Assembly (NCBI GenBank): GCA_051294905.1
Contig: CM119372.1
Location: 11,224,001-11,288,000 of the forward strand
Reading direction: 5' to 3'
Source: Botryllus schlosseri
Lineage: Eukaryota
DNA: 64,000 nt
The notes beneath the pieces were generated by a model, which had not been told where the DNA came from, did not search any database, and saw only the letters and a program-made list of their open reading frames with translations. The stretch's first letter is position 1, and each line of letters opens with the position of its first letter. Shown here in pieces: positions 4,226 through 64,000 of the stretch. Made by a program: the position numbers and the translations under genes.

Positions 4226-7200
4226 CACGAATTCCTCTGGGCTAGCGCAATTCGCAGGTCTTTTTCCGATGTGAATGTCTATTGACCGATTTATTACCCA
4301 TGCAAGACTACAATCGCAGCGCCAAGGATTGTAGGCCAATTGCAAGGTCGAGGGTACCGAAACATTTACCGTAAATGAATCACGATACAGTCTCTTCAAT
4401 CTAAAAATAAGAAGGTAACACCTTCGACGTTCAGACTCGTCATTTCAATCCTTTGTGGCAAATTATACCCGTTGTTTGACAAATCGAGGTAATCCAGCTG
4501 TTGCAGTGTTTTGAATGCTTCGACCTTTACCTCTATTAAATCCAAGTGATGTAGAATTAATTTTCTCAGGTTCGTCAAAGTCGTGAAATCTCCGGGATGG
4601 ATTGTCTGTTATATGGTAAATTATATATTTTCTTCCTCCATCATACGATACTGCAGACTAACACTCATCCATATTTGATTATCTCAATGAGTATTCCTAT
4701 TATTTATATATGAAGTTCTCTATATATTTGATATATTCTCCCCGAAAATTGTAGGTTTGGCTCGATACGTGACAGTCATACTTTCCCTCCATAATCAATT
4801 ACATTCATATGCCTGTACTATAACAAGAAGAGATATCCGTGGGAACATATGCCTCCCGTGCATTCACCGGGGCTTTGGGCATGTGGAATTGATGACATCA
4901 CCGATAAAAAGCTTCTAGTGTAATATCCTAATGCATAAATAATACAGTCCTTTTATCAAAGACCTTTTCACTTCTCCGCGATCATTCTGTAGTTATATTT
5001 GCTATGCAAATTTGCAAATTCGACAGTGATCGTTCAAATATTGATATTGCTCCCCTATTTTAACCGGAAATTATATTAAGTTGACTGTACCGCATATATG
5101 GAATTGGATGGAAACAAGTTTATAACGTATGACACGGGTATCTTGGTCTGATTAAAGTGACTATGCAACTTATGGAATATGGTAATTTGTGATGACCTTG
5201 ACATACAGGTAGGATGGGTTTAATGCATGCAGAGGTTTCCAGAGAATTTAATTACCAATGTTGGATGGAAACATCACTAACTTGACAGCATTGCCAGAGC
5301 GACAGATATAGCAACACGGTTCTCAAAACGAGGATTCCAAAATTTAACTATAAATCGCGAAATGCACGAAGAAATATTTTGAAGTTCCAGAGATTTGCCT
5401 CGAAATACTTCATTTTATCATGATTGGAGACAAAATTTGACACTACTTTCCCGCAGGCCTATGATACCTCCCAAAATGGAGTTCGAGACTTCGGGGTTAT
5501 TTTGGGGCCGGAGTTATGATCCTACACAGGACTTGTTTTATAACCGCGTTGAATTAATTGAATACTTTTACTATTTAGAACTGTTATTAATGAGATTTCG
5601 TTCAATCCGCAAGAGATTCGAAATTTTTCCCGCGACCCGCAAAAATATTTATCCGTGTATACGGATAAATATGAAAGATTTCTTCGATAAAGTTTCATTG
5701 CGGTTAGGCTACAGTAACTCTGTCAGGACGATATCGTCACCGCGTTCGAAATTCGAAAAAAAGTAGCACGTCGTGTGCTTTTAGCTTTATCAGCTGGATA
5801 AATACACGGTGACAACGTTGATATTAAATAGATTCGGCATAGTACCAACCCTAAGCCAGGTATACGCTACGGTAAATACGCTGCAGCCTCATTGCACCAA
5901 AGACATGTTTAGATTTATTGGACTACTGGGAGACGCTTGTTACAGCGTCGGTTGTGTTTCGACGCCGTATATCCGATGCGTTTATCGCGGAACAGGTGCC
6001 TATTAAGATTTTCCTGTTAAATATTGATGGTTACTCATGTGACTCAAAACTCGAGAATTTTAACTAAATAATACATGAGCACGAGCTTGACATCCGCGAA
6101 GCGCGCCCGTGTGATTTATTGGCTCCAAAGCACAGCGATTAAAAATCTATAACAACATTACCGAACAATAGCTCCGCGTCACGATGCGTAATCAATTCTA
6201 TAGGTACTTATAGCATGATTAGTAGCAAATATGATGCTGCTACTAATAGGAAATCGTCGCTTCGGAATTAAATGGTCAAGCTTCGGAGAGTATAATAAAC
6301 CACTCTTCTGGGATCTTACAATTTGGTTCATAAGATTATGTAAGCACTTGTTAAGTATGTAAGCTTGAAAGCAGAGACGTGGACGAGGCGATTCACTAAG
6401 GCCCTTAAAGGGGCACTGCACTCTAAAAATGATGTGGTCTCAGATTGAAGGGCAAAACGAAAGAAAAATTTTGGCAGCAGCCGTTTTCTTCAGAACGCCA
6501 CCGTAATGGAGCTGTAATAAATTGAAATTTCCATAGTTGCAGCACGCTCCAGCAGTCAAGCAGAGATCGAACTATATATAGTTGCCAGCCGATGTTATGA
6601 AGGAAATATGTCGTACACGCCAAGGTGGTTTAGATACCGCGTTCAACGGAAGATGTCCAGTCAGGAGATTTATGTCAAAATCGGGCCTAGTGTATTCTAT
6701 TTCTTCATAACATCGGCTGACAACTATATATAGTTCGATCTCTGCGTGACTGCTGGAGCGTGCTGCAACTATGGAAATTTCAATTCATTACAGCTCCATT
6801 ACGGTGGCGTTATGAAGAAAACGGCTGCTGCCAAAATTTTTCTTTCGTTTTGCCCTTCAATTTGAGACCACATCATTTTTAGAGTGCAGTGCCCCTTTAA
6901 CTGACAGGTGCAATCTTCCCAATTGTGACCGGCTGCAAATTCTCCAGTGATTTAAACATAATATGCCTTTTAAATGAGCTATTCGACGAAGACTCAAGTC
7001 CGATTCGGGCCTGCAATTTGTATTGCTGCGAGCCTGAAGTCCAAATAAAATAGCTCGAAGGACTGGAGTTTTTGCATAATCATTGGAAAATACCTGGATC
7101 GGATTATAAGAAAGGTCCAAGACCAGCAAATTCTCCAGATCTCGCAACGCGGTTCGAGGCACTGACGATAGGTTGCAAGATTTCAAAGTGAGGTTAGTCA

Positions 7201-10200
7201 AATTGTCCAATCCGAAGAAAGCTAATTCCGAAGGCTCCCCGGCAGATAAAACGACTTGCTCCAAGATAAGCGATCTCAACAAGTTCGTATTTCTGTTAAC
7301 GAACATTGGAAATCTAGTTTGATTTTATCAAAAAGCGGGAGTATAGTAACAAAAACCAAAAGCTTAAACTATATGCAAATCACCCATTCCCAGTAAAATG
7401 TGGCTACTGAACGGGAAGTGTAATAAAGGCGTTCATTCTGTGAGCTTCGGGGAATTATGTTTTCTTAATCAATTATTTATTGTAGTATTCGCTAATGTTT
7501 TCGCAATAGCGTAGCATTAGATTTCAGTGCAAACGCTAATTTCGTGACATCACTGACATGGCAGCATTATAATTCATTCAGTGGATGTCAATAAACCAAC
7601 GCGGCGGAAGACAGTGTAAACATTGAATGATGCGTTCCACAACATTATCCGCGCCGTGCAGTATCCAAGATTGTATGTTTTACTTTGCGTTTTCGCATTT
7701 CACATGGGAATACACGAGCATAACATATAGCCATATTCGCACTCGACGGAAACATATGTCTGATTGTATATGTCCTTCGCCCAGTCATTCAGTCCGATTA
7801 TATTCCGTCAAACAATCTTGAACTGTATGTTGATTTGACTGAATTATTTGATAAAATATAGGTCACGTTGACAGGGTCGCTAAAACTCGCTATGGAAACG
7901 TTCAATTTTCAACAAATATTTGCATTTGCAGAAACCATGACATATTTGTCGTATCTGCTGGTTCTTGCATACTTGTATGCATGTAAGTAACCTGCTTGTT
8001 CGAAATACTGGTTTTTTGTCTCAAAAAACACTTCGATGTTTATCTACACATATATGCGTAACTATACCTGAATGCATGATCTGGGATTGTAAAGAGACGG
8101 GGCATCTCGCGGATCTCGAGATATCGAATGGGAAGCGTGGTTTCCAACGCATAGACTGGAATTTGAGATAAGTTTGCGGAGCGAAACCGTAGATCAATCA
8201 GTTTGTGCAGACTGGTGAATGTCCTGAAATTGTCGATCGATGAGTCACATGACGAATTAAACTTCCCATCAGACTTGGACATCCAGAAAATTCTCTGCTT
8301 TTATAAACTAGATTAGAATCAGAATTATAGCTATACGTTTTTTTCAAAATTAGAGTAGAATTAGAATTATAGCTACACAGCTTTTTCCAAATTAGATTAG
8401 AAATAGAATGACAGAATTCGAGAAAACTTGGCAAACGTATCAAGTTTAGTTCATATTCAATCAGAGTTCATTGGCATAAGCGTAAGAATGGCAATTGTCT
8501 GCAAAGCAAGCTCGTCTCGTCTCGCACGAAACAGTTCTTCGGTGGTATTTTCAGGCAAGAAAAAAATTATATTAGAATTAAAATTAGATTAATTAGAATT
8601 ACAGCAAAGAAACATTCAACACATTAGATTAGAATTAGTTTAACGGCATTATGCTCTAATTCAGGGGTTCTCAAAGGGTGGGCCATGGCCCACTGGTGGG
8701 CCACAAAAGCATTTGAGGTGGGCCACAGAGCTATTTGGAAAATTTTAGAAATAATGTAAGTTTAGTAATATTTGTTTTGTTAATCGCTAAAAAATAAATT
8801 CATATTACTTGATTATACGTAGGCTATATAAAGCTTTTCATCCGACTCTGATGAGATGTAGTGGAACGTATGGAGTCAGCATTTCAAGTCGAAAATGGGA
8901 GGCAGAAACGGCGACTTTTCCACTGGCTATGACAACCTACGGCTTACAGCAACTATAATTTTGCGTATATAATACCCGGAACGTAATACTGAAGTAACCA
9001 AGTATTCCGGCAGGGTCATAACGTCGTATGCCGTTGAATGAGGTGTGCGATAAACTAGGAATGAAGTGTAATTGATGTATAGATGTCGTATTATTGTAAG
9101 TTAAAAATAGCCATAATTGCAAATTATTAGCAACTTCTGGTGAAGGTATACTGCACCACCGCAACGAATAGTAATGGATTGAGGATTCAGCGGAGCGCAT
9201 TAATATTTGGAGTCTGTTTAAAATGTCATGCGTGGAAATCAATGTACATAATGTAAGAGTCACATGAATTGATAGTATAACTGGATTGAATATTCTGACA
9301 TTGCAACTTCAGTTGGTTCAGTACGTGACATACAATGTACAGCATGCATAATAAGAAAATCCTTCTCCACTCCCCTTTAGTACCCCTTTCACCAATGAAT
9401 TGTTTGAAGCTGAACCAGAATGATTATACTATTCCTCTCAATAGTGGAATTAAAATCCCAATCACACAGTGTATGCGGGAATTCGATCATTGTGTTTCGC
9501 GAAGCGAAGGGAGTTGCGGACGATCATAAAATACTCAGAAGTGTTAGCATATGATCTACCAAAGCCGTAAGTGCTGCGCCCAAACCCTCAATTGGGGGAG
9601 CTAGAAGGGGCCAAGATTATTTCTTTGGTCGTTTGTTCGAAGCTATGCATTCAACATGAAAATTTTCGTCGCGCTTCGCGCGATTTCAGGACCTCACCTG
9701 TTTATATTTTAATTTCATCAGTAACTAAAGAGAAAAATGCGCATATTTTAGAGAAACAGTAATGTCTGCGCGGTCGATTAACACGAATTGAACAGGGTTA
9801 TGACTTGAAGATTAGAGGTGGGCCACAGCACATTTTCAAACCGGAAAATGGGCCACGGCCAAGAAATGGCTGAGAACCCATGCTCTAATTAGTCTAATTA
9901 GACAACCTCGATTTTTAGTTGTCCAAGTCTGCTTCCCGTGCCCCGGCGGGATCTCGGCTGCACTTTGTCCCCATACAGTATGCAGAGGCTCGTATGGACT
10001 ATAAGATGCCAGTAAGGAGGTATGCTAATGCAAAGATGATGTTTGTATGTGGAAATCTTGCGGTTCCCATCTCCTTGATATAACCAGACAACCAAAACCT
10101 CGGATCTCCAACGCATAATACATCGCATTACGCATTGAAATGTATGCGGATATTAAAATGGCTTGCATCCATACTCCAATGACGGTTCAAATTACTTTCA

Positions 10201-16200: not shown

Positions 16201-18138
16201 TTCTCTGAATACCTATATGTAGCGCATTTCGCCCTCGATGTTGTGTTATTGCGGGTCAAGATCACAGCAGAGAGTCACTAAATATTCGAGCAAACTTTTG
16301 TAACAAAGCAAGTAATAATTTTGAGATTGTCAAGGCACATGCTCGTTTAGTGTTGATTTTTTATGCTGGCAGCGCCGTGCATATAGTGGCTCACAGTCTA
16401 AATGCATGAAATTTCAACCTAAGATGTTATAATGAAGTGAAAATTGTAATATATGGGAAAGGTTCACAGTGCAGAACCTACCAAGGTTCGTTTGTGAACA
16501 TGAACCTCTAAATTTGCGAGGTTCACACACAGAACGCGAACGTGAACCTCGCGTTCACACCATCCCTACTGATCAGTGCCTGATCATACCTAAATTTATA
16601 TTTTCGAAATCGGAGCGACAGTAGCTTTCGATCAAGACTAGATTCAGTAAATTCTGCGCTCTGGAAGATAACTTTTGGATTGCCAGAAATCGGTCGCATA
16701 CGCAAAACAATTCTCAAATACAGCCTCAGCGAAGCGGAACGAAGCTGCAAAATGGGTCGTTGCCATTCCAGCGACGCAGCACAATGACCATAACAATGGC
16801 CCTTGCGTGGTTGCAATTGTTCCAAACAATGCCGATTTTCAAACATTGAGGTGTATATCAAGGGGGCTCCATTGCCCTGAATAGACTTTAATGTATATTT
16901 TCGGAATCAGTGCGACATTAGCTTTCAAAAAAGATCAACTTTATTGAATTTAAGCGCGCGGGTCGTCAGCTATGGGATTAGCAATTATGTTGCGTTCAGA
17001 TTGCTGACCAGTAATTCCCTCCGGGCAAGCAAGGGTGACGGCGGGTGTTGCGTATCTATCCGTAGGTTAGTTATCTATAGTAAAACCATGTAGTATGAGT
17101 CTACGGACGATTTGCACCCCAAATAGTCAACGTATACGATGTGGAGTGGCAGGAATCCTCGAAATCGTCGTCGGTTCAACAGTTTTTGCACGTAGATATT
17201 TATTGATCATTGGGACTGAATGCGGAAGCCTATTTCGCCGAAGGGACCATATTCACCCAATATGTTAGATTGTCACTGCCAATCCCCTGTGACGTCACCA
17301 TCAAATATTCGTGACGTCATGGCTAAAAATAGAAATGAAAAAATAAAAACATGTTTTAAATAAGTAGGCCTACTTTGTTTTAAACATGTTTGTTTTAAAT
17401 TGATTTTTGTTTGAAATGCAACCCTACTTACCCCGGTGAAATACACAAAATTGGATTCCCACGAAGGTCGAGTTTTCTCATGCTCCGTATAGAATTGAAG
17501 CTGTTATCCGTGAGCACAAGGATTTTGTTGTATGAAAGATTCAGCTCCACAAAATTTGGAAAACTCCCTCGAAAGGCATCTGAATCGAGTAACCTCAGTC
17601 TGTTATACGATAGGTTGACGGACTGAAGTCGTTTCAAATCTCTGAATATGAATGATCACACGTAAATGAACGAATTAGTTCTGCAGGAACTAAATTGCAA
17701 CGATGGTTGTACTGGGATGAATGTTCGTAGATATATATTTCGGCGCCCGGTTGGACAATGCAGATATGCGACGTATAGTTGTGGCGGGCGCGCGAAGGCA
17801 TGCATGAATTTACCGTATACGTACTCGAACGTTCCGGCTTGTATATCCGAAATACGATTCTCCGAAAAGTCGATCAGCCGCAGCTGCTGCAGCGATGTAA
17901 AATTACTTGGCACGAGTGTGATTTCATTCGCGACCCACGTTCGCAACATGATCAGTCTCTGTGTGTCTTTCGGAACAACATTCTGGAGAATGATGTCTGC
18001 TGGTTGTAATAAACGACTGCAGCGAAACGTTTCCCAATCGCACTCGCAATTTGGATCCAGAACATAGTAGCAACAACTACAAGACCATGCTCCGTAAACC
18101 AGTTGCAGGAAAGTTCTCAATACAAATTGCTTATCCAT
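4226..18138 (-). CDS. LINGO-like extracellular leucine-rich repeat protein (signal peptide, LRRNT, multiple LRRs, start of LRRCT); 3' end unresolved
   Basis: Exons (- strand) 18138-17825, 17641-17432, 8223-8068, 7292-7094, 4605-4469, 4400-4226. All are GT-AG and phase-compatible, giving ~397 aa. The protein has CECDW...C (LRRNT), repeats such as LRLIDFSENRI, LQSVNLSYNRL, LRKLDLRGNPI and LLVLDLSYNPI, and NPWRCDCSLAWV...CASP (LRRCT). The segment GLDNLTNLTLKSCNLSSVPRTALRDLENLLVLDLSYNPI resembles vertebrate LINGO1 as I recall it; orthology was not tested. Confidence 0.85.
6409..6896. mobile_element. TTAA-flanked hairpin MITE with ~200-bp near-perfect TIRs (Kolobok-like)
   Basis: TTAA at 6405-6408 and 6897-6900. 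AGGGGCACTGCACTCTAAAAATGATG... is matched by its reverse complement at the other end, with a ~90-bp spacer. TTAA TSD plus purine termini fit Kolobok rather than piggyBac (CCC termini). Confidence 0.8.
8270..9931. mobile_element. Non-autonomous hAT-like element (CAGACTTGGACA TIR, AATTAG subterminal repeats) carrying a nested insertion
   Basis: 8-bp TSD cttcccat/cttcccgt; sister copy at 56571-58632. Confidence 0.8.
8662..9882. mobile_element. hAT MITE (CAGGGGTTCTCA TIR, GGGCCAC subterminal motifs) nested in 8270-9931
   Basis: Perfect 8-bp TSD ctctaatt (8654-8661 / 9883-9890). Confidence 0.85.
10250..10575. mobile_element. Second (inverted) copy of the 16-bp-array foldback element, one arm contracted
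   Basis: Same core and CCATTCTCGGTAATG array (10425-10565) as 1128-1536, reverse-complemented. Confidence 0.8.
10883..11263. mobile_element. hAT MITE (CAGTGGTTCCCAAC TIR) with TCGCCCCC internal repeats
   Basis: TIRs at both ends; degenerate TSD ctctagac/ctccagtc. Confidence 0.75.
12701..13830. mobile_element. hAT MITE (CAGGGCTGGCCAACC TIR) containing a SINE
   Basis: TIRs; flanks gtatagac(t)/gtatagag. A SINE-free sister copy lies at 28811-29506. Confidence 0.8.
13016..13418 (-). mobile_element. tRNA-derived SINE with (TTATG)n tail
   Basis: On the - strand: A box TAGTGTAGTGG, B box GTTCGATTCC, microsatellite tail; TSD tctcgtaa. The sister MITE has the empty site at ~29115-29130. Confidence 0.8.
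14060..14997. mobile_element. hAT-like MITE (TAGGGATGG TIR, GTGAAC subterminal repeats), copy 1
   Basis: TSD gtacgtac/gtacgttc; colinear with 15581-16568. Confidence 0.85.
15581..16568. mobile_element. hAT-like MITE (TAGGGATGG TIR), copy 2
   Basis: Perfect TSD ctgatcag (15573-15580 / 16569-16576); inserted exactly at the end of the 11439-15575 element. Confidence 0.88.
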
Positions 18139-21100
18139 ACCACCCAAATAACAAGAGTCACCAACAGACGCTCCTGAAAAGTGATCGCATTTTTTGTTTT
18201 TACTCGGAGCCGGCCTGAGAGGAATAGTTGAAAACGTGATTGACTATACGTAATAAAGTTGTGAAGCAGTAGAGCAGTAGAGAAGTACTCAGGTAGAAGT
18301 AGCGATATGAGCCAAGCCTGAATGCTTTAATCAGTTCTCATGTAATCATTTGGAAAAATTAAGCTTCAAAAGCTACTTTCTTAGTTCTAGATGGAACTGG
18401 CCTGGGCAACAAAACCACAATTGGCAATAAGTAGAGCACGTAAGGGAGAGAGTGAGAGAGGGTATATATTTTAATGTTACCATATTTGAAAATGCTCAAT
18501 CCTAGGAGAAAAGTACCTCCTTGCAACCTTAGAAATTACTGTTATATATTGCCGCAAACGATTTCGAACACAGTCGAACAGTGCAATTACAACACATCTT
18601 TACATCTTGACATCCCTGACACACGATTGTATGCGACGTGCGTCACTAGTTAGCTGTGGACAGATTTAGAACTGGCAGTTACTACATGAGCTGATAATGT
18701 TATTGTTCATGAAATCTATAAGAGTAGGAAATGTAACAACATATAGCCTACAAAAACGTGGAGTACGATATAATAATTGAAAATCTCAGACATTTAAGCA
18801 AATATCCCTGGCGCAGATTACATCAGAAACATCCTCGACCTATTGCTATAGCTTAGACATCGTGCAACTACCATTGTACCTCTGCCACTACGTATGATGC
18901 TATTTGTTATATCTCTAGGTGCGTCGTTCCCAAACTGTGATCCGCATGGTCATTCATCTCAGCCTCACACCACTGGGGTGAAAGGTGTCTCCCCCCCCCC
19001 GAATTTCCGATCTCGGCTTTTGAGGTCATGTGTTTTCAATACGTTACGATGAGGCCACCACGCTATGCCATTGTTGAACATATCGTCACCCCACCAATAT
19101 TTATCCGATCTTTCCAGGTTTACATCCTGGCTATGCCTATTTGTGGTGATATGATATGACATAAGATGGTGGGATCCTTCACTCTGATTCCCTTTCGAGG
19201 TGGCAAATACGAAATTTGGAAGAAGCAAATGTGCCTCTTTTGCCCTCGTCTGTTTATGCTGAACGCCAAGCAGACTAATTAAATGGAGTCCGGGTGAACA
19301 TTTCTGAAACGTCACAGAGATCTCTATATAAAAAACCGAAAATCATTCCATCGACATTCCACCGTCAGTATTTAGCAAAGCTATATGTTTCTTATGTTTT
19401 TGTTAGTTATAACATCTCATCTATTTCTGAAATGAGCTCCAGAATCGATTATTATAAATCGAGAATCAAATAATCGAGATAATGATTAATGATACATTTT
19501 GACACTGATGGTTCTCGATAAGTAAAGTAGGCGGAAATTGAATACAAAGCCCGGTGAAGATGATCAGAGTGGTCACTGGCCATGATAGGTTTAGAAACAT
19601 TGGATATATGACCTTAAAACAGTGGTATCATAAAATTTTCATCCTACACACTTTATCTGGCGTGCTAGTGCTGTAGTTCTACACATGCGTAAGTCTGAGC
19701 GTAACACGTTGTGGTTGAAAGTTTTAGCCGCTTTCGCTTTCTGATTCTATATTCTATCCGGTTTCACCCATACCTCATTTTGCATGTCACAGTTTTCGAC
19801 CATTACAAAATTATTCGGTAAAGTAATTATTACATAAAATAATCATATACAAAGTATTTAAAGTTACTCACACAATTTGAGTGATCATCAAAATTTTCTG
19901 TAACTCGCAGATACTGATTTCAGTTGGTAAAATCTCACGGATCCGTTTTCGAAATACCCTTAGAGGATGGTACAACTACATATAAAGCGTATAAACTTAC
20001 ATGTATACCAGATATTGCATACACGCGGTGTAATACACAGAATACTTTACACAACGTTTTGGGAATACAAGATGTGCGCAATATGTGCAAAGCACAAAAA
20101 TGATTGCTTTCTTCAGACGCTGGATATTCTCTCGTGTTAAGCGCTACCTTGACTCCATGAACACGCCCTTATTGGATGAATTTTACATGCAATGCTGTGC
20201 AGTTCAGTGACGATGTTGACGTCTTGTCACATCACCGAACATCTGTGGCAAATAAACCGCTATATATGTGATTGTGGACGGCATAATGCATAAGTGCTGT
20301 AAACACGCCTTGCACAGCTGCCATAATAATATCACCAGAAACATGTTTCTAATGACCGAGATCCGGGTGAATAAATAAACAATATGAAGTATCATTCACA
20401 AGTAATTCAAGTATTTTGATACACTACTCATACATATGTACACGATTCCACTGAAATACTCTTGCCCAAGACCTATAACCTAAATATTATTTATCCAGTA
20501 TTATCCAGCTGCCTGATGATTGAGAAAAGAAGGTCTGTTCCTTTATTGCATGCTCCACTGCCATGTCAATCTATTTTAATCGATAGTCCAAAACGCGTTA
20601 GCAGAAATTCTGCACTTTATGTATTCTAACGCTGCGCATATGTCCATATACGCACTGATTTGCGTTGACATAATCCTGAGATCGGATTAGATTGAACAGT
20701 TGTCTAATCTCTTGGTCATTCTTGAAAGCTCATCTTATCTACAATAAGCTACATGCATCCCCTTAAACGGGGCATAGGTCGGGACTCGGGATCGTTGGCG
20801 GAACTGCCGGGTGCTTAAGAAATAGTTATTGTTTGAAATGGTGGATCATTGCACATAAATTGCAAATTTCGAATTTCGATAACTCTTCAACCTTTTATGT
20901 ATCTATATCCTCATAAAAACCGGGATTATATTTGACATTAATACTTTATGTTAATCCGTGATGTGATTTTTGTGTCAGTATAGCAGTTTGTTAATATTTT
21001 CATCATTTCAAAGCACCACGAAACTGCGATACAGTGAAAAGATAGGAAGGTGTCGAAGGGACTTGCTGGAGTTGTTTTTGAAATCAGACACCCACATTGG

Positions 21101-43679: not shown

Positions 43680-46600
43680 ATGGGATGGAAAACATTTGCT
43701 TATTTCGTGATCATGATGGCTGTGTCTTCTTGCTCTGCGAGGCAGAGATTGTTCAGTAGAAGCCGCCGTTTGGCGCCCAGTACCGGAGGTATAAAGTATG
43801 CTGCAATAGCAGCAGGCGCTAGTAAGTAGAAGATGTTCATTGATAGGCAAATTTATTAGGATCTTTCGATACTGGTAGCGTTTACTTTTTCAATTTGCTG
43901 CAGTTCCGGATCGAGTGAGGGATCGCATCCGCGCCGATAAGCCTCGGACATCATCATCCTCAGCGTTCGCTGGAAATAGTGGTCAATCGAGTTCTAATTC
44001 TGCATCACCTTCTTCGTCCGTATATTCCGGTGCCTCCGGTTCGCCATATGGAAATGCCGAGGCTAACGCGGGATTCTATCAAGGCTCACGACAGCCTGAT
44101 ACTCAGCAGTATGGATACGGATATCCTCAAAATGGATATCAAGGCACGAGCTCAGCTCATGCACAGCAGCAATATGCAGGAGGGCGGCCCGTGCCAGTTG
44201 GAAGAAGTACATTTCCGTATGACACTGCCGGAATTTATACTGGACCAAATCAGAATCAGTATTCTTCGCAACCTTTACCAATTCCTTCCTCGTCATCACC
44301 TTACGGGGCTGGACGTGCTGGTTATCAGAGTCAACAATCCCTTGGGTACCCAATGCATTCGCAACAGCAATACTATCCACAGCAACAGGGAGCAAACTAT
44401 AGAGGCAGTTACAGCTCCATATCTAGCCCATATGGCAGTCCGTACGGTGCTAATCCTTATGTAGCAAATCCATACGGTAATAGGATGCCGACAATGCAAT
44501 ATGGAGGTTACGGACAGCAACCTTCTTACGGAGCAAGTACTGGTGAGTGACAGATTAATGTGCATTGTGCAGTGCAATCATACCGTAGGCCCCGATATGG
44601 GTATTTCGGGAACCAGATGCTAAACTGCCAAAAATAACAGTTGGAATATGAAAGAAATAAGGCTTTTTGAAAAAGTAGATATTTTTAATAAATTTCAATA
44701 AGAATTCGAAGGAGTTTGTATGAAAATAAGCGACAACAGAAATATATAAAGCAAAAATACTCGAACATGGGGTCCGTGAACCGTATGGGGGTCCGCGGAC
44801 TATCATGGCTAGGAGATTGTTTGTATTTTGTAATGTATAATCTACTAACCGATAATGTTTATATTTTGCAAATAAAATTTCATCCGTACAAACTCAACGA
44901 AATTTGTTATCTTGAAATTTCATAGCAGTTCAATAACCGTAAACTGCAGTGGTCTTAAACTCTTTCGAACGCGACCAAAATCTGAGTTTTAATGGCATCT
45001 CGCTACCCAAGCCTGACACATCAAAAATAATACATTTTTAATATTTGTGTGCTACGTTTTTACGCGCAGGCACCAGTTGTACGGAACGAAGCTGACGCAC
45101 GCGATTTCAAACTGAGGTTCATTATTTTTATCTGGGGGTCGCATTTGTATATGTACTACTGCCTACTCAGTTTGTCGCCAGAAGGAACGCCTCTACTGGC
45201 TTTACCTATACACTCTTGGAATATTTCATTAATGTTTGTTTTGTATCGTTACTATACTACCGTATCTTGCCCGTCTACTAGTTGTTTGTTTTGTTAGTAT
45301 TACGTCATACAAACAAAATAGTTCCTACATTTCGAATTTGATTCACGCTATCACTGACGTTCGCTACTGATGAGAGTCAGTCGAAAAGTTTTTAGCGAAT
45401 AAATTAACAATATGAAGTTATTGTTTCGCGTTATTCTGAAGTTCTGGACCTCAAATGGCTTGTTCTACTCAGATTGCAAGGCTGGGACTATTCGTTGTAT
45501 ACCATTTCCACGACCGGATATAATATCGAAGGTTTCGGCCAACCAGCAACGGTCAATTTTGTCGTGTTTTCATGTGTTCTGTTCCGGCGAGGAAGGGGTC
45601 GGCCTGGTATAATATCAGCGTTGGCCTATCATATACCTATGCAGTGCACCCGCTCGTTACACGCCCCTACACACTAAAGCATCCCAACGGTTTCCGACGG
45701 TGTTTTCCGGAGAAAACAATACCGGACAAATCTTATCACGAATTCAAACCAATTTGTGTAATACAAAAGTCGGCACATCATCATGATCAACAGATCAAGC
45801 CATATTATTATATTATTATTGCAGGGGTCGGTAAACTTTCGTAAGCAGCGTGCCAAAATGTCAAAAAAAATGTTAAAAAAAATGTAAAAATATTACCAAC
45901 TGGCGTGTCAAACATTATTAATTTTGTCGTATTTAGCGTTCCAAGCAAGGAATCCCACCAAACGCGTATCTGAAGCTGACAACGGCATCAGTTAGGCTAC
46001 GCCATTGATTCTTACAGGATTGGTCGCGAAGAGAATGATTTTGGTCTCTACCGCACTACACTAATGTACGTAATATTTGTACCATTTAATTTTAGTAGCG
46101 TAATGATCGATCTTCTGCGGTTGATTTGGTCGATGCCAAATCCACTGTGCTGTGTGCTCGGTACCAGCCACTAAGTGACGGGCCCATCACAGATGTTACG
46201 ATGATATAGCCTGATGATGAAAAATGTTTAAATCATGTTTTTTATTGTTTTTTGTTTTTCAAGGTCATGACGTCACACATATTCAATTGTGACGTCACAT
46301 TGGATTGATATTCACAATTGAAAATATAGCTCCTTTGACGAAATAGGCTTCCAACCCCTGTCATATACGGACCAAAAAATCTACGTCATTCCGTATAACT
46401 GATCTATATCTACGACTATTTCGAGGGTTCCGCCCATCCCATATCTCATACGTCGGCTATATTGGGTGGTAATCGTCGTCCGTAGGCTCATACAACATAC
46501 AACATGTTTTTGGAAAGTATTCACACAATTATGACATAATCATACAACTTAAAAACACTTTTTTTAAAAAGGACTTTGTTTAAAACACTGTTTAAAACAG

Positions 46601-49600: not shown

Positions 49601-52600
49601 CAGCTCACATTTGTCATGTCCACAGGTTATCAGAACGCGTACGGTGGTGGAACGATTGGCTCTCCGTATCGCAATCCTAATGAAATGTTCACGTCGTACG
49701 TACACCCGCAAGACAGCGGAAGCAGTCGAGGGATGGGTGGGCAAGGAATGTCGAATCCGTACTACGGCTCGAGTACCTACGGTCAAGGATACGCAGGAAC
49801 GTCTGATTCTAGTTCTGGATACTACGGATCAGATTACGGAAGCATGTCGAATTACGGCCAGCCATCAGCCAGTCCGTCGTCAAACTCATTATCGAGTTTT
49901 GGTGGATACGGCCAAGATCAGGGATCGTCCGTTTCCTCATACGGCTACGGTCAAGGCCAGGGACCTTCGGGTTCCTCATATGGATACGGTCAAGGCCAGG
50001 GATCGTCTGGTTCCTCATACGGCTACGGCCAAGACCAGGGATCGTCTGGTTCCCCATACGGTTACAATCAAGGCCAACGGTCATCAGGTTCCTCATACGA
50101 CTATGGTCGAGGCCAGGAAGCGTCTGGTTCCTCGTATGGCTTTGGTCAAGGCCAGGGATCGTCTGGTTCCACATACGGATACGGTAGAGACGACCACCAA
50201 GCACAGGTTGCCGGTTATGGTAACGGGGGGAGTGATTCGTCATATCAGAGTCCGGGAGTTTCAAACAATCCATATTCTAATACCGGGGCTACGACCGGAC
50301 AGGCGGAGCGCTATGGAGGGTCCCGTGCTTCTTCAATGCAAATCTCAGCTTCGCGTAGCCAAGGCTCACATTACCGTGATCAAACTGGATCCAGGCCTAC
50401 CAGCAGTACTCAGTCTCAGGCACGTCCTTCTTCCTCCCGGTTTGTCAGCGCTGATGCGAGCTCACAGCAACATTCAACTACATACGCACGTCATTACGCC
50501 GGTAGTCAAGGCGATTCGTCACGAAGTAGCAGTTCTTCCTTCAATCCCCAACACGAGCAGAGATCCTCGCATCAGTCATCGTCAACGACCGTCTCTCGAA
50601 CGACGGCAATATTTCAAAATCCGAGTGACGAGGTATGTCTTGTGACGTTATAGCATCTTGGCGTGTATGAATTAGGTCGCCTGTTATTCCAACCCGTTTA
50701 CAGAGTGGTAGCCGGACACGGACGCATCAAAGACCGCAAGCAGGTCGGGTTTCGACAGGTAGGCTATAGTTCAAGAGTTTCAATGACAGAGGATGGTCAG
50801 AAACGAAGTACTTACACTTTTTCAGAATAATCAAGTAGTTGTTTTTTGCCTACTTGCACAACTTACTGAAGCGGTTATGTTTGCAGACTACTTCCACTTT
50901 TTCTAGAACCGTTTGAGACAAAACTATATACGTTTTACTATTTGGATTTTAAAGAGTAGAAAGTAACTTTGGATTAAACGAACCGCAAAAAATAGCATCA
51001 TATCATGGTAACTGAATAATTTCTATATATATTTGCGGTGCCATACTGTCATTAGTCATTAAGCGGCAGTCACGAGCATATATTTTTTGAGATCCGATGC
51101 TGCCATCTCCGATTAACTATAAACTACTAACAAAGACCCCTCGGCCTAATTATCTTTTTAACACTACTTGCTTGAGTACTTCCAGATCTAACATTTTCCA
51201 TGTCCACTAGAAGTACTTTTGATATGTTCTGGGAATTTCTACTTCTACTTGTAATTGAGTAGAAATTTACGGCGTTACTTTTACTTGAGTAGCCACGCTG
51301 ACCATTTTGATGACCTTTGGTCGTTGATGATACTACAATACAAGTAGAAGTAATCCTGTAAATCGCTGCTGAGTTACAAGTCGAAGTAGCGTTTTTCAAG
51401 ACGGAGAAATAGAAAACGAAAAGTATGAAAATTCAGTATGTTCAAATTGTAGCTTGAAGAAGTAGTTTGGGACGAGGTGTCGCAGACTTTTGCTTGTCAA
51501 TCGCCGGTATACAAGAAGATTTTTCGCTTCTAACGCAGAGTAACCTGAACAATAGGAAAGATTATATTCTCTCACGTTGATACAGCTAGAGGCTACAGTG
51601 CATCGTCAGGTTGTTACACCAATTTCATGCTTAAAATAGGGTCTTTCCATACACTACTTCAAAGGAAGTTGTTTTGCTTATATAACTGCTATAGAAGTAT
51701 AAACTAAAGCATGTAAAGTAGGAAATCATAAGTCAGTTGAGGGAGTATAGCACAGATAGACACAGCCTATTTCCGTACTCCAAACAAATATAGAACTTCG
51801 TTACTGACCAGTTGACCACCCTAGAAATCACCTGCATCTTATTCAATGACTTTCCCTCGCTCAGGTGATAGCCAGCGAAATTCGTCACGTTTTAATGCGT
51901 TCTCGCGACCAAGCATTCAGGATAACCAGGACGGAACATTTTTAGTGAACAGTCGGGGTGGTTATGGCGGCGGTAAGTCTGATATGTATACTGCCCTATT
52001 ATCTGTTTTGTGGTAGGATACGGGGAGTATAAAACGATGAAGCACAGGAAATATGAATGTTGAGAGATGACCATGGACTATATTCTTGAACAACTCCGTT
52101 TTTGCATTATCCTTTAAATATACCCATTTTGAATATTTGTTTGATTCTACTTTTTGCTTCTCCTTCAACAGATTCCGAAGTCATACTACATATCTACACG
52201 CTTTTTACTATAGCATATGGTCGTTTTGTCAAGTAGTAAATATTTTTGGACAACCGGTACGGTAAGGTATTAAAGGTTTTGAAAGCTTCCTTGCATCAGA
52301 GATTATGTACCACGCGTAATCAAATTCCTTCAAATAATTTTCGTCAGTAATTTTCAGACCTTTACTTCATACATTTATTTAGACAGTTTTGCGGCCGCTT
52401 CAGATTCACAACTCATGCTAGTCACTCACTATAGTTTTACAACATCTGTAATATAGAATGCCAGTAGAAAATTACCTCAACATTAGGCTTATTTCCGTAG
52501 CCTTTGACAAGGCCTTTACCGAAGTTGATATAATTCGTTACAGAGCGTCAAGAAAATAATGACCTTTCACCTGTTGCAAAAGATGCCTTATCAGAGTGCC

Positions 52601-58600: not shown

Positions 58601-59156
58601 AAAACTGGAAATTTTCTAGCTGTCCAAGTCTGATCTGAACTTGCTACTCAGTTGCCAGACCATTCTGACTGTGTATGACGTCATAGTGAGTGGTACGACA
58701 ATCGGAATCGAATCTCGTAATGGCTCGATTTCGCTCAACCGTATTCATTGCATGTCGTCACCCGTCAGGCATGGCTCGTTATAATTTCCAAATCAAGAGA
58801 TTAAAAATCGTTTAGGTACAATTGCACCGCCGTTGAAGGCAACGATCGAGGTACGCAAGGAATTTCCCCTGGCTGCTACGACGATTACATGGCGTCCCTT
58901 GATTGTCAGTGGATTGACATCACAGGAATACCAACAACGAACGCGGTTTTTACTCTCAAGGTTAGTGGTATCAAGTTTTACTGTGAGGCTCAGCTCGGGT
59001 TAATAGACGCGCTTCACATTCCAGATAATAGTAAATCCAGCAATTGACGGGGAACGCGCCGTGGACGAGCTTTCGTACATGAATAACGCCGTGTCATGCA
59101 GGATATCAATAAAGGGCGGTAGTTCGGTGAAACTCGATAGATGCAAACAAGTCTGA
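43680..59156 (+). CDS. LOX: Lysyl oxidase (LOX/LOXL1-type, no SRCR domains) with long S/Y/G/Q low-complexity N-terminal region (~876 aa)
   Basis: Exons 43680-43788, 43904-44542, 49626-50632, 50704-50758, 51865-51972, 52544-52615, 52681-52813, 52879-52980, 53043-53171, 58816-58960, 59025-59156 (2631 nt, all GT-AG, phases consistent). Signal peptide [20 protein letters not shown]. Catalytic domain motifs: GLPDL, CAVQEEC, RRLLRFP, copper site [16 protein letters not shown] Lys in [11 protein letters not shown] Tyr in [18 protein letters not shown], and NNAVSC...C. Confidence 0.9.
46598..47310. mobile_element. hAT MITE in LOX intron 2, containing a truncated SINE
   Basis: CAGGGACGGGCAAC / GTTGCCCGCCCCTG TIRs; perfect TSD gtttaaaa. 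Confidence 0.82.
47392..48452. mobile_element. hAT MITE in LOX intron 2
   Basis: CAGAGGACTCAAAC / GTTTGAGACCACTG TIRs, GCGGCCCGC motifs; TSD ttttaagc/gttcaagc. Confidence 0.72.
49905..50190 (+). repeat. Coding 39-bp tandem repeat (13-aa unit [13 protein letters not shown]), ~7 copies, in LOX exon 3
   Basis: Units such as GGCCAAGATCAGGGATCGTCCGTTTCCTCATACGGCTAC and GGTCAAGGCCAGGGATCGTCTGGTTCCTCATACGGCTAC are read directly in the sequence. Confidence 0.9.
54096..56274. mobile_element. hAT element in LOX intron 9 containing a large internal foldback insertion
   Basis: CAGGGGTTTCAAAC / GTTTGACACCCATG TIRs; perfect TSD atgtagag. Confidence 0.85.
56571..58632. mobile_element. CAGACTTGGACA-family element containing nested MITE 57156-58040
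   Basis: TSD gtctgaac/atctgaac; AATTCTAATCT arrays. Confidence 0.8.
57156..58040. mobile_element. hAT MITE, uninterrupted sister of 28280-30284 (opposite orientation)
   Basis: Perfect TSD tcctatac; carries a single copy of the target (gtttttac at ~57855) that is duplicated in the other copy. Confidence 0.88.
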
Positions 59157-60089
59157 AACTTCTTCAATTTCATGAAATTTCGATGAACTATAAATACAGT
59201 GTACATACCTTGGTTTTGTTGTTCTATAAGCTGCATTTGCGCATATTGTACGAAGCAACGATCGTCATTCACGGCTTTTCTATTTCATAGGATAAATGTA
59301 ATATGATTTATTTCCTAAGTCGCATGCGATGGTGATCCATTCGAAGTCAATGACGTCACTCGAAAAAAGAACTGATCTTCGCCTGAATATTTGTGATAGC
59401 GATTTGATTTCTGAAATTATTTTGTTGTTATCCAGCTCGATTAAATCTTCGATTTCGTGAATAGTGCGGTTACCATATTTTGAGATCCGAAAATAAAGAC
59501 ACTTTTTACAAGTTACAATATAACTAATAGCGGTCGAGAAAATGGGTTATTTGCGGGTAAGGTTGACTAAAAACAGGTCATTTTTCCAAATCGACTCCAG
59601 AGAGACCCACTCCCATGTCAAAACGGCTGGCTTTGGCTTTTTTTAGTCGTCCGTGTACAATCGCGCAGCTTTGAAATATATAAAGGAGGACGAATTGCCA
59701 AGAAGGAGGACATTTGGTCGCCACCGGAGGACATTTTCGATTTCTTCGAAAAGGAGGACGTATGGCAACCCTAATGCATCATAGTATCGTCAGCACCAGG
59801 GCTCTATCACTCAAGGGAGGCGACGGGCTAACTTATCAATTGAGTAGACGGCGCGGGCAGCCTGACTTTAGTCATAAAATTGAGTAACCTATTGCAATTT
59901 AGGAACGATACGCGTAGTAGGCCTATACTGCGCCAATGTACCTTATTTCTCTTCAATCCTATTGCACCGCGGTATATGCAAAAATATACACGACACGGGG
60001 CCTGCGATAAGTATCGTAGGCCCTGCACGACACAATTATTAATTTCACGTCATGCTCGCGAATACTACTGGACTCATGTCCCCTATACG

Positions 60090-61319
60090 CAGAGGTGGTC
60101 AGTAACGAAGTACTTCTACTTTTTCAAAGTACTCAAGTAGCTTTCCGCTACTCGCGTGCTTACTCAAGTAGATCTAATTCCCCGCTACTTATACCTCGTA
60201 ATATTGTGTGATCGACTTACTTACCTTTCGCTATTTTCAATTTGTCAAGCAGAAGTAGTTTTATCCACGAATCAGGATGATAGCCTGAAGAATTTTGGGG
60301 CTGTTTTCACGGCGTATAAACATTTAATTTTAATAAATATTGAGTAAAGCCCAGAATTTTCGTCGTGCTTCGCGCACAGTGACCAATATGATTTCACGAA
60401 AGTATCGGCGAATATAATTTAGGTCGCGGGTTGCGTGGTTCCGTCCACACCGCATTGTTGCCCATATGAAATATTTCATCACAGTATATATGGCCCATGA
60501 TAACGTTTGATACTGATGTGTCGCAATCTAGCATTTACTTATCTAGCAGTCCATGGCGTGTCGTAATCTGGAAAAGTGGAGTCTGACTTTTTTTTAGCTT
60601 TAGAGCTGTTTCAGCATACCACCTTTGAAACTTTCTGGACGTAATACATGAAATATATTTTCCGCTTTTAGAAGTAGTATTGATATTTCTCTTTCAAGTC
60701 CCAGTATCATACTTTGAGTTCTAATTTGTTTCAGTTCTTCTATCTGGAGAACATCCATGTTAAATTATAAAAGCATTAAGCGTAAAAATGCCTTCAATTT
60801 CCGGAAATAAAGCTACACATGGCATTTTTACGACCCACCGTATTTTTTTATTAACGTTTATTAATCGCGCAAAATGTTTACACCGTATCCATTGCAACTT
60901 CTCCGTATTGCTCTTTGACTAAACTACTGCTGGCCTTGTAATGTGGGGGAGGGCCCCGTACCATGCTATTTCCAGACGAATAGAATACCATTTCCATATC
61001 AATACTATCATTTTCATCCGATGATGTGGTCGAATGCTTATGCTGTCGGAAATTGGATGCCTCCTGGTATGCATCAATATGAATGAAGCTCTGCTCCTTT
61101 CTCATAGCTCAATTTGCAGTTTGACAGTCCATGCGAACGATGAATTACGATCGTTTTCACTACTTACTTACTTGAGTACATTTAAAGTCAGTCAATTCTA
61201 CTTCAAGTAGTTTTCGGTTGCTTATGAAATATGTACTTCTACTCGTACTTGAGTAGATTTTTTCGTCACTACTTTTACTTCTACTTGAGTAGCTTTCTTG
61301 ACTACTTTGACCACCTCTG
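60090..61319. mobile_element. hAT element, inverted sister of 23933-25511 lacking the SINE
   Basis: CAGAGGTGGTCA TIRs; degenerate TSD cctatacg/cccctacg; colinear internal sequence. Confidence 0.85.
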
Positions 61320-62060
61320 CCCCTACGACGTCAGTATATTTTCAAAATCATTCCAGCTTTTCGAAATGAAAAATTTGTCGACCGAGATGACACGTAACGA
61401 TGCTCTCTGCACCCTCTCGTAGGATGCCAACTACGAAGAAATCTAGTTGGAGCTATGTAGGCATGATACATATTACATATGCAAAAGTGAGTCACTGCTT
61501 GTCTGCCAAGCGTGGGCTTGTAATGTATAGTGAGCGTGTATTGATTCACGTTCCGCGTCAGGAGTAATAAAGACGAAAAATCTGCACTCCTTCTATCACT
61601 AAGCAAGTCACGTGATATGGCATCATAGCGAACACGACTGTACTTCCGCCTATTCATATGCGATCAAGACATCTTCGATACGGGATGCTAGATAGCAGTG
61701 ATAGATCATTTATGACTGGAAAGGACGCTTCGGCCTCTATTCTTCAATTGTTGCTATTGTGTTTGTTGTTCTAGGTTTGCAGAATTTTCAATATATGAAA
61801 TGACATTTAGGTATCGACGAAAAAATACTAATACTACTGGCAATATTTTATTTATGGTAGCAAAGGTTGGCTACGCATTTCAACTATCCACGCCAGTCAT
61901 ACTGTTATGACGTAATATATGATGATACTTGAATATAGTCGATTCGGAATCGAATATGTCAGATTCAATTTTGCCCAGCTCTAAAAAGTGAAAAACGACT
62001 TACGATTTCTACTACGATGTCAGTCATAGTACAGACTTCGTTTCAACACGCGCGCTGAAA

Positions 62061-63875
62061 ATGTTGTGGAACATGAACATGCAAGAAGCAAGGAACCTGC
62101 ATTCCACAGGTAAACTGTGAATACTCTGCGGATAATTCATATTTCAACGATTATATTTTGCTTCCGTTGATCACTGCTGTGGACACAGACATAGAGTACC
62201 AGAAAATTTCTTGAAAGCTCAGAGTACGAGCTAAAACACTTCTCTATCCACACAGATGTGTAACTAGTAATTTATCTATAGATGTTTCGCCGGTGACTTT
62301 GTTGCAGTATGCCATAAACCGTGCTTTGTGATGACTAATACAAATGCAGAAACGTTGAATACTGAAGCTTGTGGCTTGGAGCCAATTTTCGGCTCCCTCT
62401 TAGAAGCTTATTATGACGTCATTGGTCATATTCCGAGCAAGCGATGGAAGGAATTCGCACGTATTGGGCTAGGCGTTCGTGAGCAAGACATGAATGATAT
62501 TGCGGAAGATTATTCTTTCGATATTAGGGAGCAGAAATTTCAAGTGTGTCTTAAGTGGGGTGAACTACAAGGCGTCAATGATAAAGATGCTTGTGCAGCA
62601 GAGTCGAAAGAAGTAAATGCCGCAAAGATATTCTTATATCGGATTATGAATCATTTTATGTGGCCTGACAAATGTCCGAAACCCGATAGAATACACACAA
62701 TGCACAAGCGAGACAGACAGAGTTATTGCGATCGCGTCGGGAATGTAGTTTTATCCAACAGTACGAAAGCCACACGTGGCTTTCTACCATGCTATCAGCA
62801 GAAAAGTCTGATGAAGCAGGTCGTTATATTCAACAACTCATTCACACACTCCCATAAGCTCAGGCCTCGCCTGGGATCAAAAGTTGATGTCGCAAACATG
62901 AAGAATTTGTGGAATGAGCTTGGATGTCAGGTTGCCATCCACGAAGATTTCACCGCAATAGACATGATGACGAAACTCAAACAATACGCCAGTGACTGGT
63001 GTCAGTTGGCTTTCTGTGCGGTAATTGTGATGTCACACGGTGATGAGGATGACGCCATTTACGGCGAAAGCTTCGAAACGGTCAATTTTGTCCGTGCACG
63101 TAACGTCACGGATACGTTTAGTACAACGAACGCGCCGCGTCTCGCTGGAATTCCGAAACTATTTTTCTTTCAATGTTCCCGCGGGGGCAAAGCGGGCGGA
63201 CCGCGTTTTCGCCATCCACCGCGGAATCAGACTAATCGCGATGCTGTCGTTGGCTGCGCTGGGAATGGAATTCGAACCTTCACCATGGAAGCTCCGGTCA
63301 AACCACACTTTGACAAAACCGGCCACGCTCCACCGCTCTCAGATATGTTAGTGTGCTACTCCACAGCTCCTGGGTATTCCTCGTTTCGCGACCCAAACAA
63401 CGGTAGCTGGTTCATCAACGCCATAACGAATGTGTTTATGAAACATGCCAAAAGCGAACACGTGGTCGAACTGATGATGAAGGTCTGCTCAGAGATGATG
63501 GACAAATCAGCCTCGGGTGATGAGATCTTGGAAGGCCAAACATGCGTTCCTTCATTTGAATGTACATTGACAAAACTTCTTTACCTTGATCCCGCCAATG
63601 CTCTTAGTAGACATCACGAGGAAGCTGAAAAACTAGCCAAAGGCGTCCAAACAGAGCATTCTGATGATGCGATTATGCTGAGGAAGGTACTCATGGAAAT
63701 AGCTTCAAATGATAGAAATGATGAACGAAAGAAGATGACCACTCGCTCGTTCAATACTGGCGATGTTCTATTTACCGAATTTTCATGTCGAAGATTTTTA
63801 GAAACGATATTACTATCATTGGGAATGATTATAGCCTGGACTTACACTCCACACTTACACGATTCAATCAATTGA
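62061..63875 (+). CDS. Death-domain caspase-family protein with variant active site (QCSRG) and C-terminal hydrophobic segment
   Basis: Large exon 62308-63875 plus a probable short first exon 62061-62109 (donor ACAG|gtaaac, acceptor ttgcag|; in frame, ~538 aa); alternatively starts at ATG 62331. Caspase motifs: VVIFNN, RLGSKVD, IVMSHG, LAGIPKLFFFQCSRG, DMLVCYSTAPGYSSFRD...GSWFI, CTLTKLLYL. The N-terminal RWKEFARIGLGVREQDMNDI...REQKFQVCLKW is death-domain-like. Confidence 0.88.
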
Positions 63876-64000
63876 ACAGCACTTAGGAAGGGATTCTAGA
63901 GTCGACCTCTGTCGGACTTGGACTCGCAACCAGTTGATATTACAGCGATCCAACGTATCACTAAGCTATCTCTCCAGGCATGGTACTAGAGATGCTAGGG

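Follow-up and report, generated by a model that had tools for sequence, protein, structure and literature searches.

A caspase homologue with a death-domain prodomain and serine at the nucleophile position in the ascidian Botryllus schlosseri

The 64-kb stretch of Botryllus schlosseri DNA analysed here (the window, 64,000 nucleotides) carries near its right-hand end a gene whose product joins a death domain (DD) to a caspase domain; its features are collected in Table 1. The frame listing and its translation show the + strand to be open without interruption from 62271 to 63875, 534 codons from stop to stop, so that the 1.5-kb open caspase frame of the original prediction is present; 62308, given there as its start, is not a start codon, since the first ATG is at 62331. 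Contigs of transcript type are colinear, in pieces, with the DNA across 62298-64000, and no second caspase or death domain was found elsewhere in the 64-kb window. A short ATG-led stretch at 62061-62110 has a donor-like site near 62110, and the segment 62282-62308 has an acceptor-like site near 62307, so an in-frame splice from the former into the caspase frame is possible; the joint 62110/62307 is in no listed read, and one contig of sequencing run X9 is unspliced from 62298. About 3.3 kb upstream, and on the + strand like the caspase frame, is an exon of a lysyl oxidase gene; the last exons of that gene occupy 58805-59470 (Pfam E 6.6e-13), and its 64-base GT..AG intron is spliced in four runs. 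Multi-copy repeat DNA at 60042-61445, with very high contig depth and many loose ends, separates the two genes. Farther off are exons with leucine-rich repeats, from at least one gene, on the - strand (6857-7324 and 17656-18243) and, on the + strand, two long low-complexity frames rich in Gly, Ser, Tyr, Gln and Pro (43879-44550 and 49601-50653), which contain short repeats, have no Pfam match and may encode part of a structural or secreted protein.

Table 1. Coordinates, in the window, of the death-domain caspase gene and its parts.
Feature	Position	Strand	Remarks
Single coding frame	62331..63875	+	514 aa from ATG 62331, stop included in the coordinates; no intron needed
Death domain, residues 23-110, six helices	62397..62660	+	Profile, folded model, structure search
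Caspase large subunit (p20-like), residues about 164-290	62820..63200	+	Pfam, structure model
Arg180, Asp-pocket arginine	62868..62870	+	Kept in 3/3 Ser proteins
His236, catalytic His position	63036..63038	+	Kept in 3/3 Ser proteins
QCSRG pentapeptide	63171..63185	+	Cys282, inherited variable residue; Ser283 (63177-63179) replaces the nucleophile Cys
Gly289 in place of the loop-bundle Asp	63195..63197	+	Nucleophile +6, caspase-3 D169 position; alignment
Caspase small subunit (p10-like), residues about 334-420	63330..63590	+	Asp338, Arg353, Ser359, dimer-interface strand
C-terminal extension, about 94 aa, predicted helical	63591..63872	+	Absent from the Styela Ser protein and active relatives
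Terminal hydrophobic amphipathic helix, residues 489-505	63795..63845	+	Marginal membrane anchor

Contigs from X6, X9 and X18, three runs that come from as many other studies, cover the frame. These runs are not on record as RNA, but their contigs behave as RNA, since the neighbouring gene's GT..AG intron is spliced in them and depth falls to zero at 61446-62147; the caspase gene is likely transcribed. In the RNA run X24, of which 3 in 100 raw reads were read, depth over the frame is 0 to 2.5, with zero depth over the bin that holds the pentapeptide. An assembly error at 63174-63179, a possibility raised with the original prediction, is unsupported by the contigs: the X9 record (62481-63669) has 6 differences from the window, all of them listed and none at 63171-63185, and the X6 record (62344-63565) has 3, 1 of them listed, so it cannot carry QACRG, which would require three differences where at most two are unlisted. 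The X18 record has 14 differences, 1 of them listed, and the state of the motif is not readable from it. Over the whole frame X9 and the window differ at 7 listed positions, 6 synonymous and 1 non-synonymous, the last in the tail; against an expected synonymous share of 0.21-0.27 this excess has P 0.0005-0.002, or P 0.002-0.006 when a single unlisted difference close to the 5' end is counted as non-synonymous, in a test that compares one allele (X9) and is not a cross-species dN/dS. X6 also holds a second allele, in which 172 bases of the tail contain 11 differences and 3 gaps. This allele and the low raw-read RNA depth are what a decaying duplicate might show, but decay or assembly error has to contend with an open 1.6-kb frame, the synonymous excess, a Ser common to two distant relatives (below) and the state of the pentapeptide in X9 and X6, and we regard it as the least credible of the explanations considered here. 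Together with the spliced-transcript contigs, these observations argue against a pseudogene; judged on its sequence, the gene is intact, under selection and no product of misassembly.

The caspase domain that had been predicted is well supported, both by Pfam (Peptidase_C14, E 1.5e-39) and by fold, the AlphaFold model of the whole protein (mean pLDDT 80) matching solved caspases with Foldseek E about 1e-20 and TM 0.81-0.90 by target. Translation bears out the QCSRG pentapeptide together with the intact His (SHG, 63033-63041) and both arginines (RPRLGS, 62862-62879; SSFRD, 63378-63392). The Asp-pocket set of Arg180, Gln281, Arg353 and Ser359 is present in full, Arg180 being presumably the equivalent of caspase-1 R179. 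We aligned 117 caspases, namely the window protein and 116 of 150 matches (the 34 left out were mostly long or multi-domain); the nucleophile column is Cys in 112 of the 117 and Ser283 in the window protein. Two relatives have the same replacement: P0002 (ECSRG), which is 46% identical to the window protein, and Styela clava XP_039256627 (QTSRG), which is 36% identical. Arg180, His236, Gly237, Arg353 and Ser359 are kept in all three Ser proteins and Gln281 in two, P0002 having Glu for this pocket Gln; for comparison, 39% of the core (84/214 columns) is invariant. At nucleophile +6, the position of the loop-bundle Asp, the window protein and P0002 have Gly and the Styela Ser protein has Asp; this Asp is kept in 18 of 23 members of the clade described below and in 63 of 91 rows outside it, and so is not universal. 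Asp338, which we take to be the caspase-3 D192 position, is invariant in the six nearest proteins, but its retention discriminates little because it is near-invariant across all 117 caspases. In caspase-3, loss of D169 abolishes activity and D192 acts on the partner protomer, according to the accessible text of PMC6571611. On established caspase chemistry we infer that the window protein is non-proteolytic, and the original reading of it as a pseudo-protease that has Ser for its nucleophile but retains most of the Asp pocket stands.

The relatives place this change in a family. A search of 1.84 billion representatives led to a 26-protein clade whose members mostly have a DD at the N-terminus (SH-aLRT 93 in a quick tree of 57 rows); 18 of the 25 members other than the window protein were looked up, and the 7 that are named are all ascidian (7/7; Styela and Ciona). 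Within it the window protein groups with Styela and Ciona Q-x-C-R-G proteins that have an N-terminal DD plus a caspase domain. A more careful tree of 16 rows unites the window protein, P0002 and XP_039256627 as a Ser branch (support 100/98) and this branch with three QCCRG proteins as one group (99/99). The nucleophile Cys is kept in 23/23 clade members outside the Ser branch, and the x of their Q-x-C-R-G is F in 10, C in 6, I in 2, M in 2 and T, A and S in 1 each. Since QCCRG is the motif of the three nearest active relatives, Cys282 corresponds to the inherited x and not to a nucleophile that has moved; the simplest history would be a single change from QCCRG to QCSRG, by loss of the second Cys. 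The dead form is old, since the members of the Ser branch are 36-46% identical. Styela clava has both the Ser protein, likely an orthologue of the window protein judging from its sequence, and an active-type QCCRG DD-caspase (XP_039253563); the Styela Ser gene is on a 20.3-Mb scaffold, different from the 24.3-Mb scaffold of four paralogue records. A profile of six proteins recovered the same two Ser relatives and no others among 4009 candidates, and none of 189 shorter proteins was a further Ser orthologue. Metagenome contigs gave 2 distant loci among 74 candidates, one of them QACRG, which were left aside in what follows, and the ESM Atlas, queried with the whole protein, gave generic caspase clusters.

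Seventeen of the protein matches (P0005-P0010, P0014-P0016, P0021, P0026, P0027, P0030, P0039, P0064, P0082 and P0108) are apparently active caspases with an N-terminal DD. The motifs of this expanded family are QCCRG, QFCRG, QICRG or QMCRG, its named members are from Styela clava and Ciona intestinalis, and several of the Styela records are on one 24.3-Mb scaffold. P0029 is a QACRG caspase with its DD at the C-terminus, not the N-terminus. We found no description of ascidian DD-caspases as a family in the literature searched, and the accessible parts of PMC11508797, PMC11463336, PMC10959488 and PMC4818882 contain no account of one.

The original prediction had also allowed that the enzyme might be active with a shifted nucleophile, Cys282 acting for the lost Cys. 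Such a change of nucleophile, whether to Cys282 or to a Ser283-His236 hydrolase, would suit the invariance of the Ser in 3/3 distant members and the retention of the His and both arginines. Cys282, however, occupies the inherited x position, where the Styela Ser protein has Thr, the loop-bundle Asp has been lost, and Ser is found at the nucleophile in 2/91 caspases outside the clade, one of them without the His, as expected if this is the commonest way for a caspase to die. Caspases moreover have no third acid residue to activate a Ser, which counts against a Ser-His hydrolase. We therefore consider an active enzyme with a changed nucleophile very improbable, and the narrower idea of a natural serine-nucleophile caspase, working through the invariant Ser and the kept His, is likewise very improbable. 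Other natural Ser-nucleophile caspase domains outside the Ser branch are P0052, P0095, P0020 and P0044; P0095 keeps the His and P0052 does not.

The prodomain, from which the original prediction had quoted a peptide (located at 62433-62477), is a true death domain and not a CARD or DED. Pfam Death gives it 15.4 bits (E 0.021), under the 22.6 cut-off; a custom DD profile built from 13 relatives, of which 12 pass that cut-off, with the three Ser proteins left out, scores it at 59 bits (E 2.8e-18) and matches 0/23 proteins with a listed CARD. A model of the domain by itself has six helices with pLDDT 92, and a structure search with this fold returns death domains as its top seven entries, including those of FADD (Z 9.1, rmsd 2.7 over 77) and TNFR1 (Z 8.4, rmsd 1.8 over 73); CARD, PYD and DED matches have Z of 5.0 or less. 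Foldseek likewise ranks death domains first, none of them reaching E 0.001, and the ESM Atlas has no usable match for the N-terminus. A death domain of TNFR1 type had been predicted; profile and fold uphold the death domain over CARD or DED, and TNFR1 and FADD types are indistinguishable because their Z scores are tied within 1. To call the DD distinctive of this gene was an overstatement, as it is a family trait of active ascidian caspases and is present also in amphioxus proteins.

The C-terminal extension past the last strand is about 93 residues in the window protein and about 106 in P0002; in the 16-row alignment the remaining 14 proteins stop within about 15 residues of that strand. The best Kyte-Doolittle (KD) mean in the window tail is 1.58 over 17 residues and 1.33 over 19, that in the P0002 tail is 2.03 over 19, and among 160 proteins the two rank 4th and 2nd, respectively, in C-terminal hydrophobicity. 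When their tails were aligned with each other, shuffled sequences did as well in 63% (local) and 43% (global) of 2000 trials, so the case for a shared origin lies solely in position, length and the terminal hydrophobic helix. The protein had been predicted to be membrane-anchored: the hydrophobic tail exists, but as an anchor it is weak, being marginal, amphipathic and absent in Styela, and a membrane anchor limited to the sub-branch of the window protein and P0002 is possible. Two unrelated short caspases, P0066 and P0045, likewise have a hydrophobic segment at the C-terminus (KD 2.74 and 1.65), and tail-anchored caspases may thus have arisen more than once.

That the gene encodes a selected, non-cutting protein, by whichever of the two following routes it might act, seems to us very probable. 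Of these we favour, as probable by analogy with cFLIP-L and caspase-8, the one in which the window protein is a dead paralogue that tunes active DD-caspases. By this analogy the DD would recruit it alongside the active DD-caspases of its family, and the kept dimer strand would let it pair with them in a heterodimer that would set the activation threshold of the active caspase. Having lost its own loop-bundle Asp and kept Asp338, whose presumed caspase-3 counterpart acts on the partner, it could complete the partner's site at low dose; at high dose it would dilute active dimers. The added tail, the weakest step, may hold the complex at a membrane. Regulation of paralogues is favoured because Ser is present in 3/3 members of one branch and Cys in 23/23 of the others, and because Styela clava carries the Ser protein plus an active QCCRG DD-caspase; a dead but partner-serving protomer fits the loss of the nucleophile +6 Asp with retention of Asp338, although the kept pocket equally allows a trap. 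Several observations weaken this account: Arg180, His236, Arg353 and Ser359 are kept beyond the need of a bare dimer partner, which favours a pocket still in use; the Styela protein retains the loop-bundle Asp; the Ser itself has not drifted, and only three Ser proteins were found; and the Styela Ser gene and the paralogues are on different scaffolds, unlike the adjacent CFLAR and CASP8.

The other route is that the dead enzyme traps Asp-containing substrates or caspase inhibitors in its kept pocket, or acts as a scaffold that nucleates DD signalling, in either case without pairing with an active caspase. Cys-to-Ser mutants of caspases are dead yet still bind substrate, and our PDB search had as its top entry just such a form, the solved caspase-9 chain 2ar9; retention of Arg180, His236, Arg353 and Ser359 in 3/3 Ser proteins also suits a trap. 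The Glu that takes the place of the pocket Gln in P0002, on the other hand, would repel a P1 Asp, and two of the three Ser proteins lack the loop-bundle Asp, which orders the pocket. We judge a trap or scaffold to be unlikely, though much less so than a changed nucleophile. Regulation of active paralogues remains our preferred reading, and a bolder extension of it, which we offer as a rather doubtful speculation, is a separate ascidian death-signalling module of DD-only initiator caspases for which styelid-type ascidians would have evolved a cFLIP of their own; in this lineage it would form a membrane-tethered platform, adaptor-free as in the original prediction, that recruits the active caspases and sets their threshold.

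Ascidians are the sister group of vertebrates. They lack caspase-9 and Apaf-1 according to the accessible text of PMC10959488, an absence that bears on how cell death is triggered and held in check in this group. The proteins described here point to an expanded family of caspases with a DD prodomain that has one conserved dead member; they suggest that the cFLIP design was invented a second time, on another type of death fold and with the active site nearly complete, and they offer in Styela clava a testable pair, the Ser protein and the QCCRG enzyme. A dead caspase that regulates its paralogue and a DD in an invertebrate prodomain are kinds of protein already known. We found no published protein that combines a single DD, a Cys-to-Ser exchange beside a retained His and a tail limited to one lineage.

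Among known systems, MALT1 resembles the window protein in having an N-terminal DD on a caspase-fold protein. This paracaspase has Ig domains and is an active enzyme specific for Arg, whereas the window protein has the Asp-pocket arginines of a true caspase and no Ig domain found by Pfam. In its own clade are Styela XP_039256627, Styela XP_039253563 and Ciona XP_078486918; the first of these has the DD and the Ser, and differs from the window protein in its QTSRG, its retained loop-bundle Asp and its lack of a tail; it is auto-named caspase-6-like or caspase-2-like, and all three are database entries that bear automatic names only. The mosquito Aedes aegypti CASPS18 and other dipteran decoys are alike in being dead duplicates of active invertebrate caspases, and we take CASPS18 to have Ser for Cys as well. 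Published work describes CASPS18 as a decoy enhancing its paralogue CASPS19 (PMC4840389 and PMC3141678, accessible text); the protein is of effector type, a Decay homologue, and the accessible parts of these papers describe neither a DD nor a tail, both of which the window protein has. Amphioxus and oyster caspases share with it a DD in an invertebrate prodomain, which is DED+DD in amphioxus bbtCaspase-1/2 (PMC3196919, accessible text) and DED-DED-DD in the oyster proteins (PMC7836458, accessible text); these DD caspases carry DEDs too or are QACRG enzymes, and the window protein is neither. Our search also found a DD-caspase of Branchiostoma floridae (P0036), which the quick tree does not place in the ascidian clade. 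A survey of Ciona places caspase X, without an identifiable CARD, in the caspase-2 group (PMC10923776, accessible text), and the prodomains named in the accessible text of reviews are CARD, DED and pyrin, with cFLIP and caspase-12 as pseudo-caspases (PMC12292325, PMC11121540, PMC2779465). No ascidian DD pseudo-caspase or tail-anchored caspase appears in the literature searched, which excluded the primary ascidian surveys of Terajima 2003 and Weill 2005, where Ciona members may already be described, and of the 12 papers returned by a literature search for five pentapeptides none concerns caspases by its title.

The closest parallel is cFLIP-L (CFLAR), which likewise joins a death-fold prodomain to a complete caspase domain that is dead and descends from active paralogues. 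cFLIP has two DEDs where the window protein has a single DD and no DED match by Pfam or structure search, and it has lost both residues of the dyad, whereas the window protein keeps the His and has exchanged Cys for Ser; the replacements in cFLIP are Arg315 and Tyr360 (PMC7586951, accessible text). The window protein differs further in its ascidian DD-caspase ancestry and its C-terminal extension. The quick tree, in which no caspase-8 or cFLIP is named, places it inside a DD-caspase clade and away from the only tandem-DED row. By domain content it is not a cFLIP orthologue, and it likely arose independently. The regulatory logic is nevertheless likely the same: in heterodimers FLIP(L) both activates and restrains caspase-8, as the accessible text of PMC7586951 describes.
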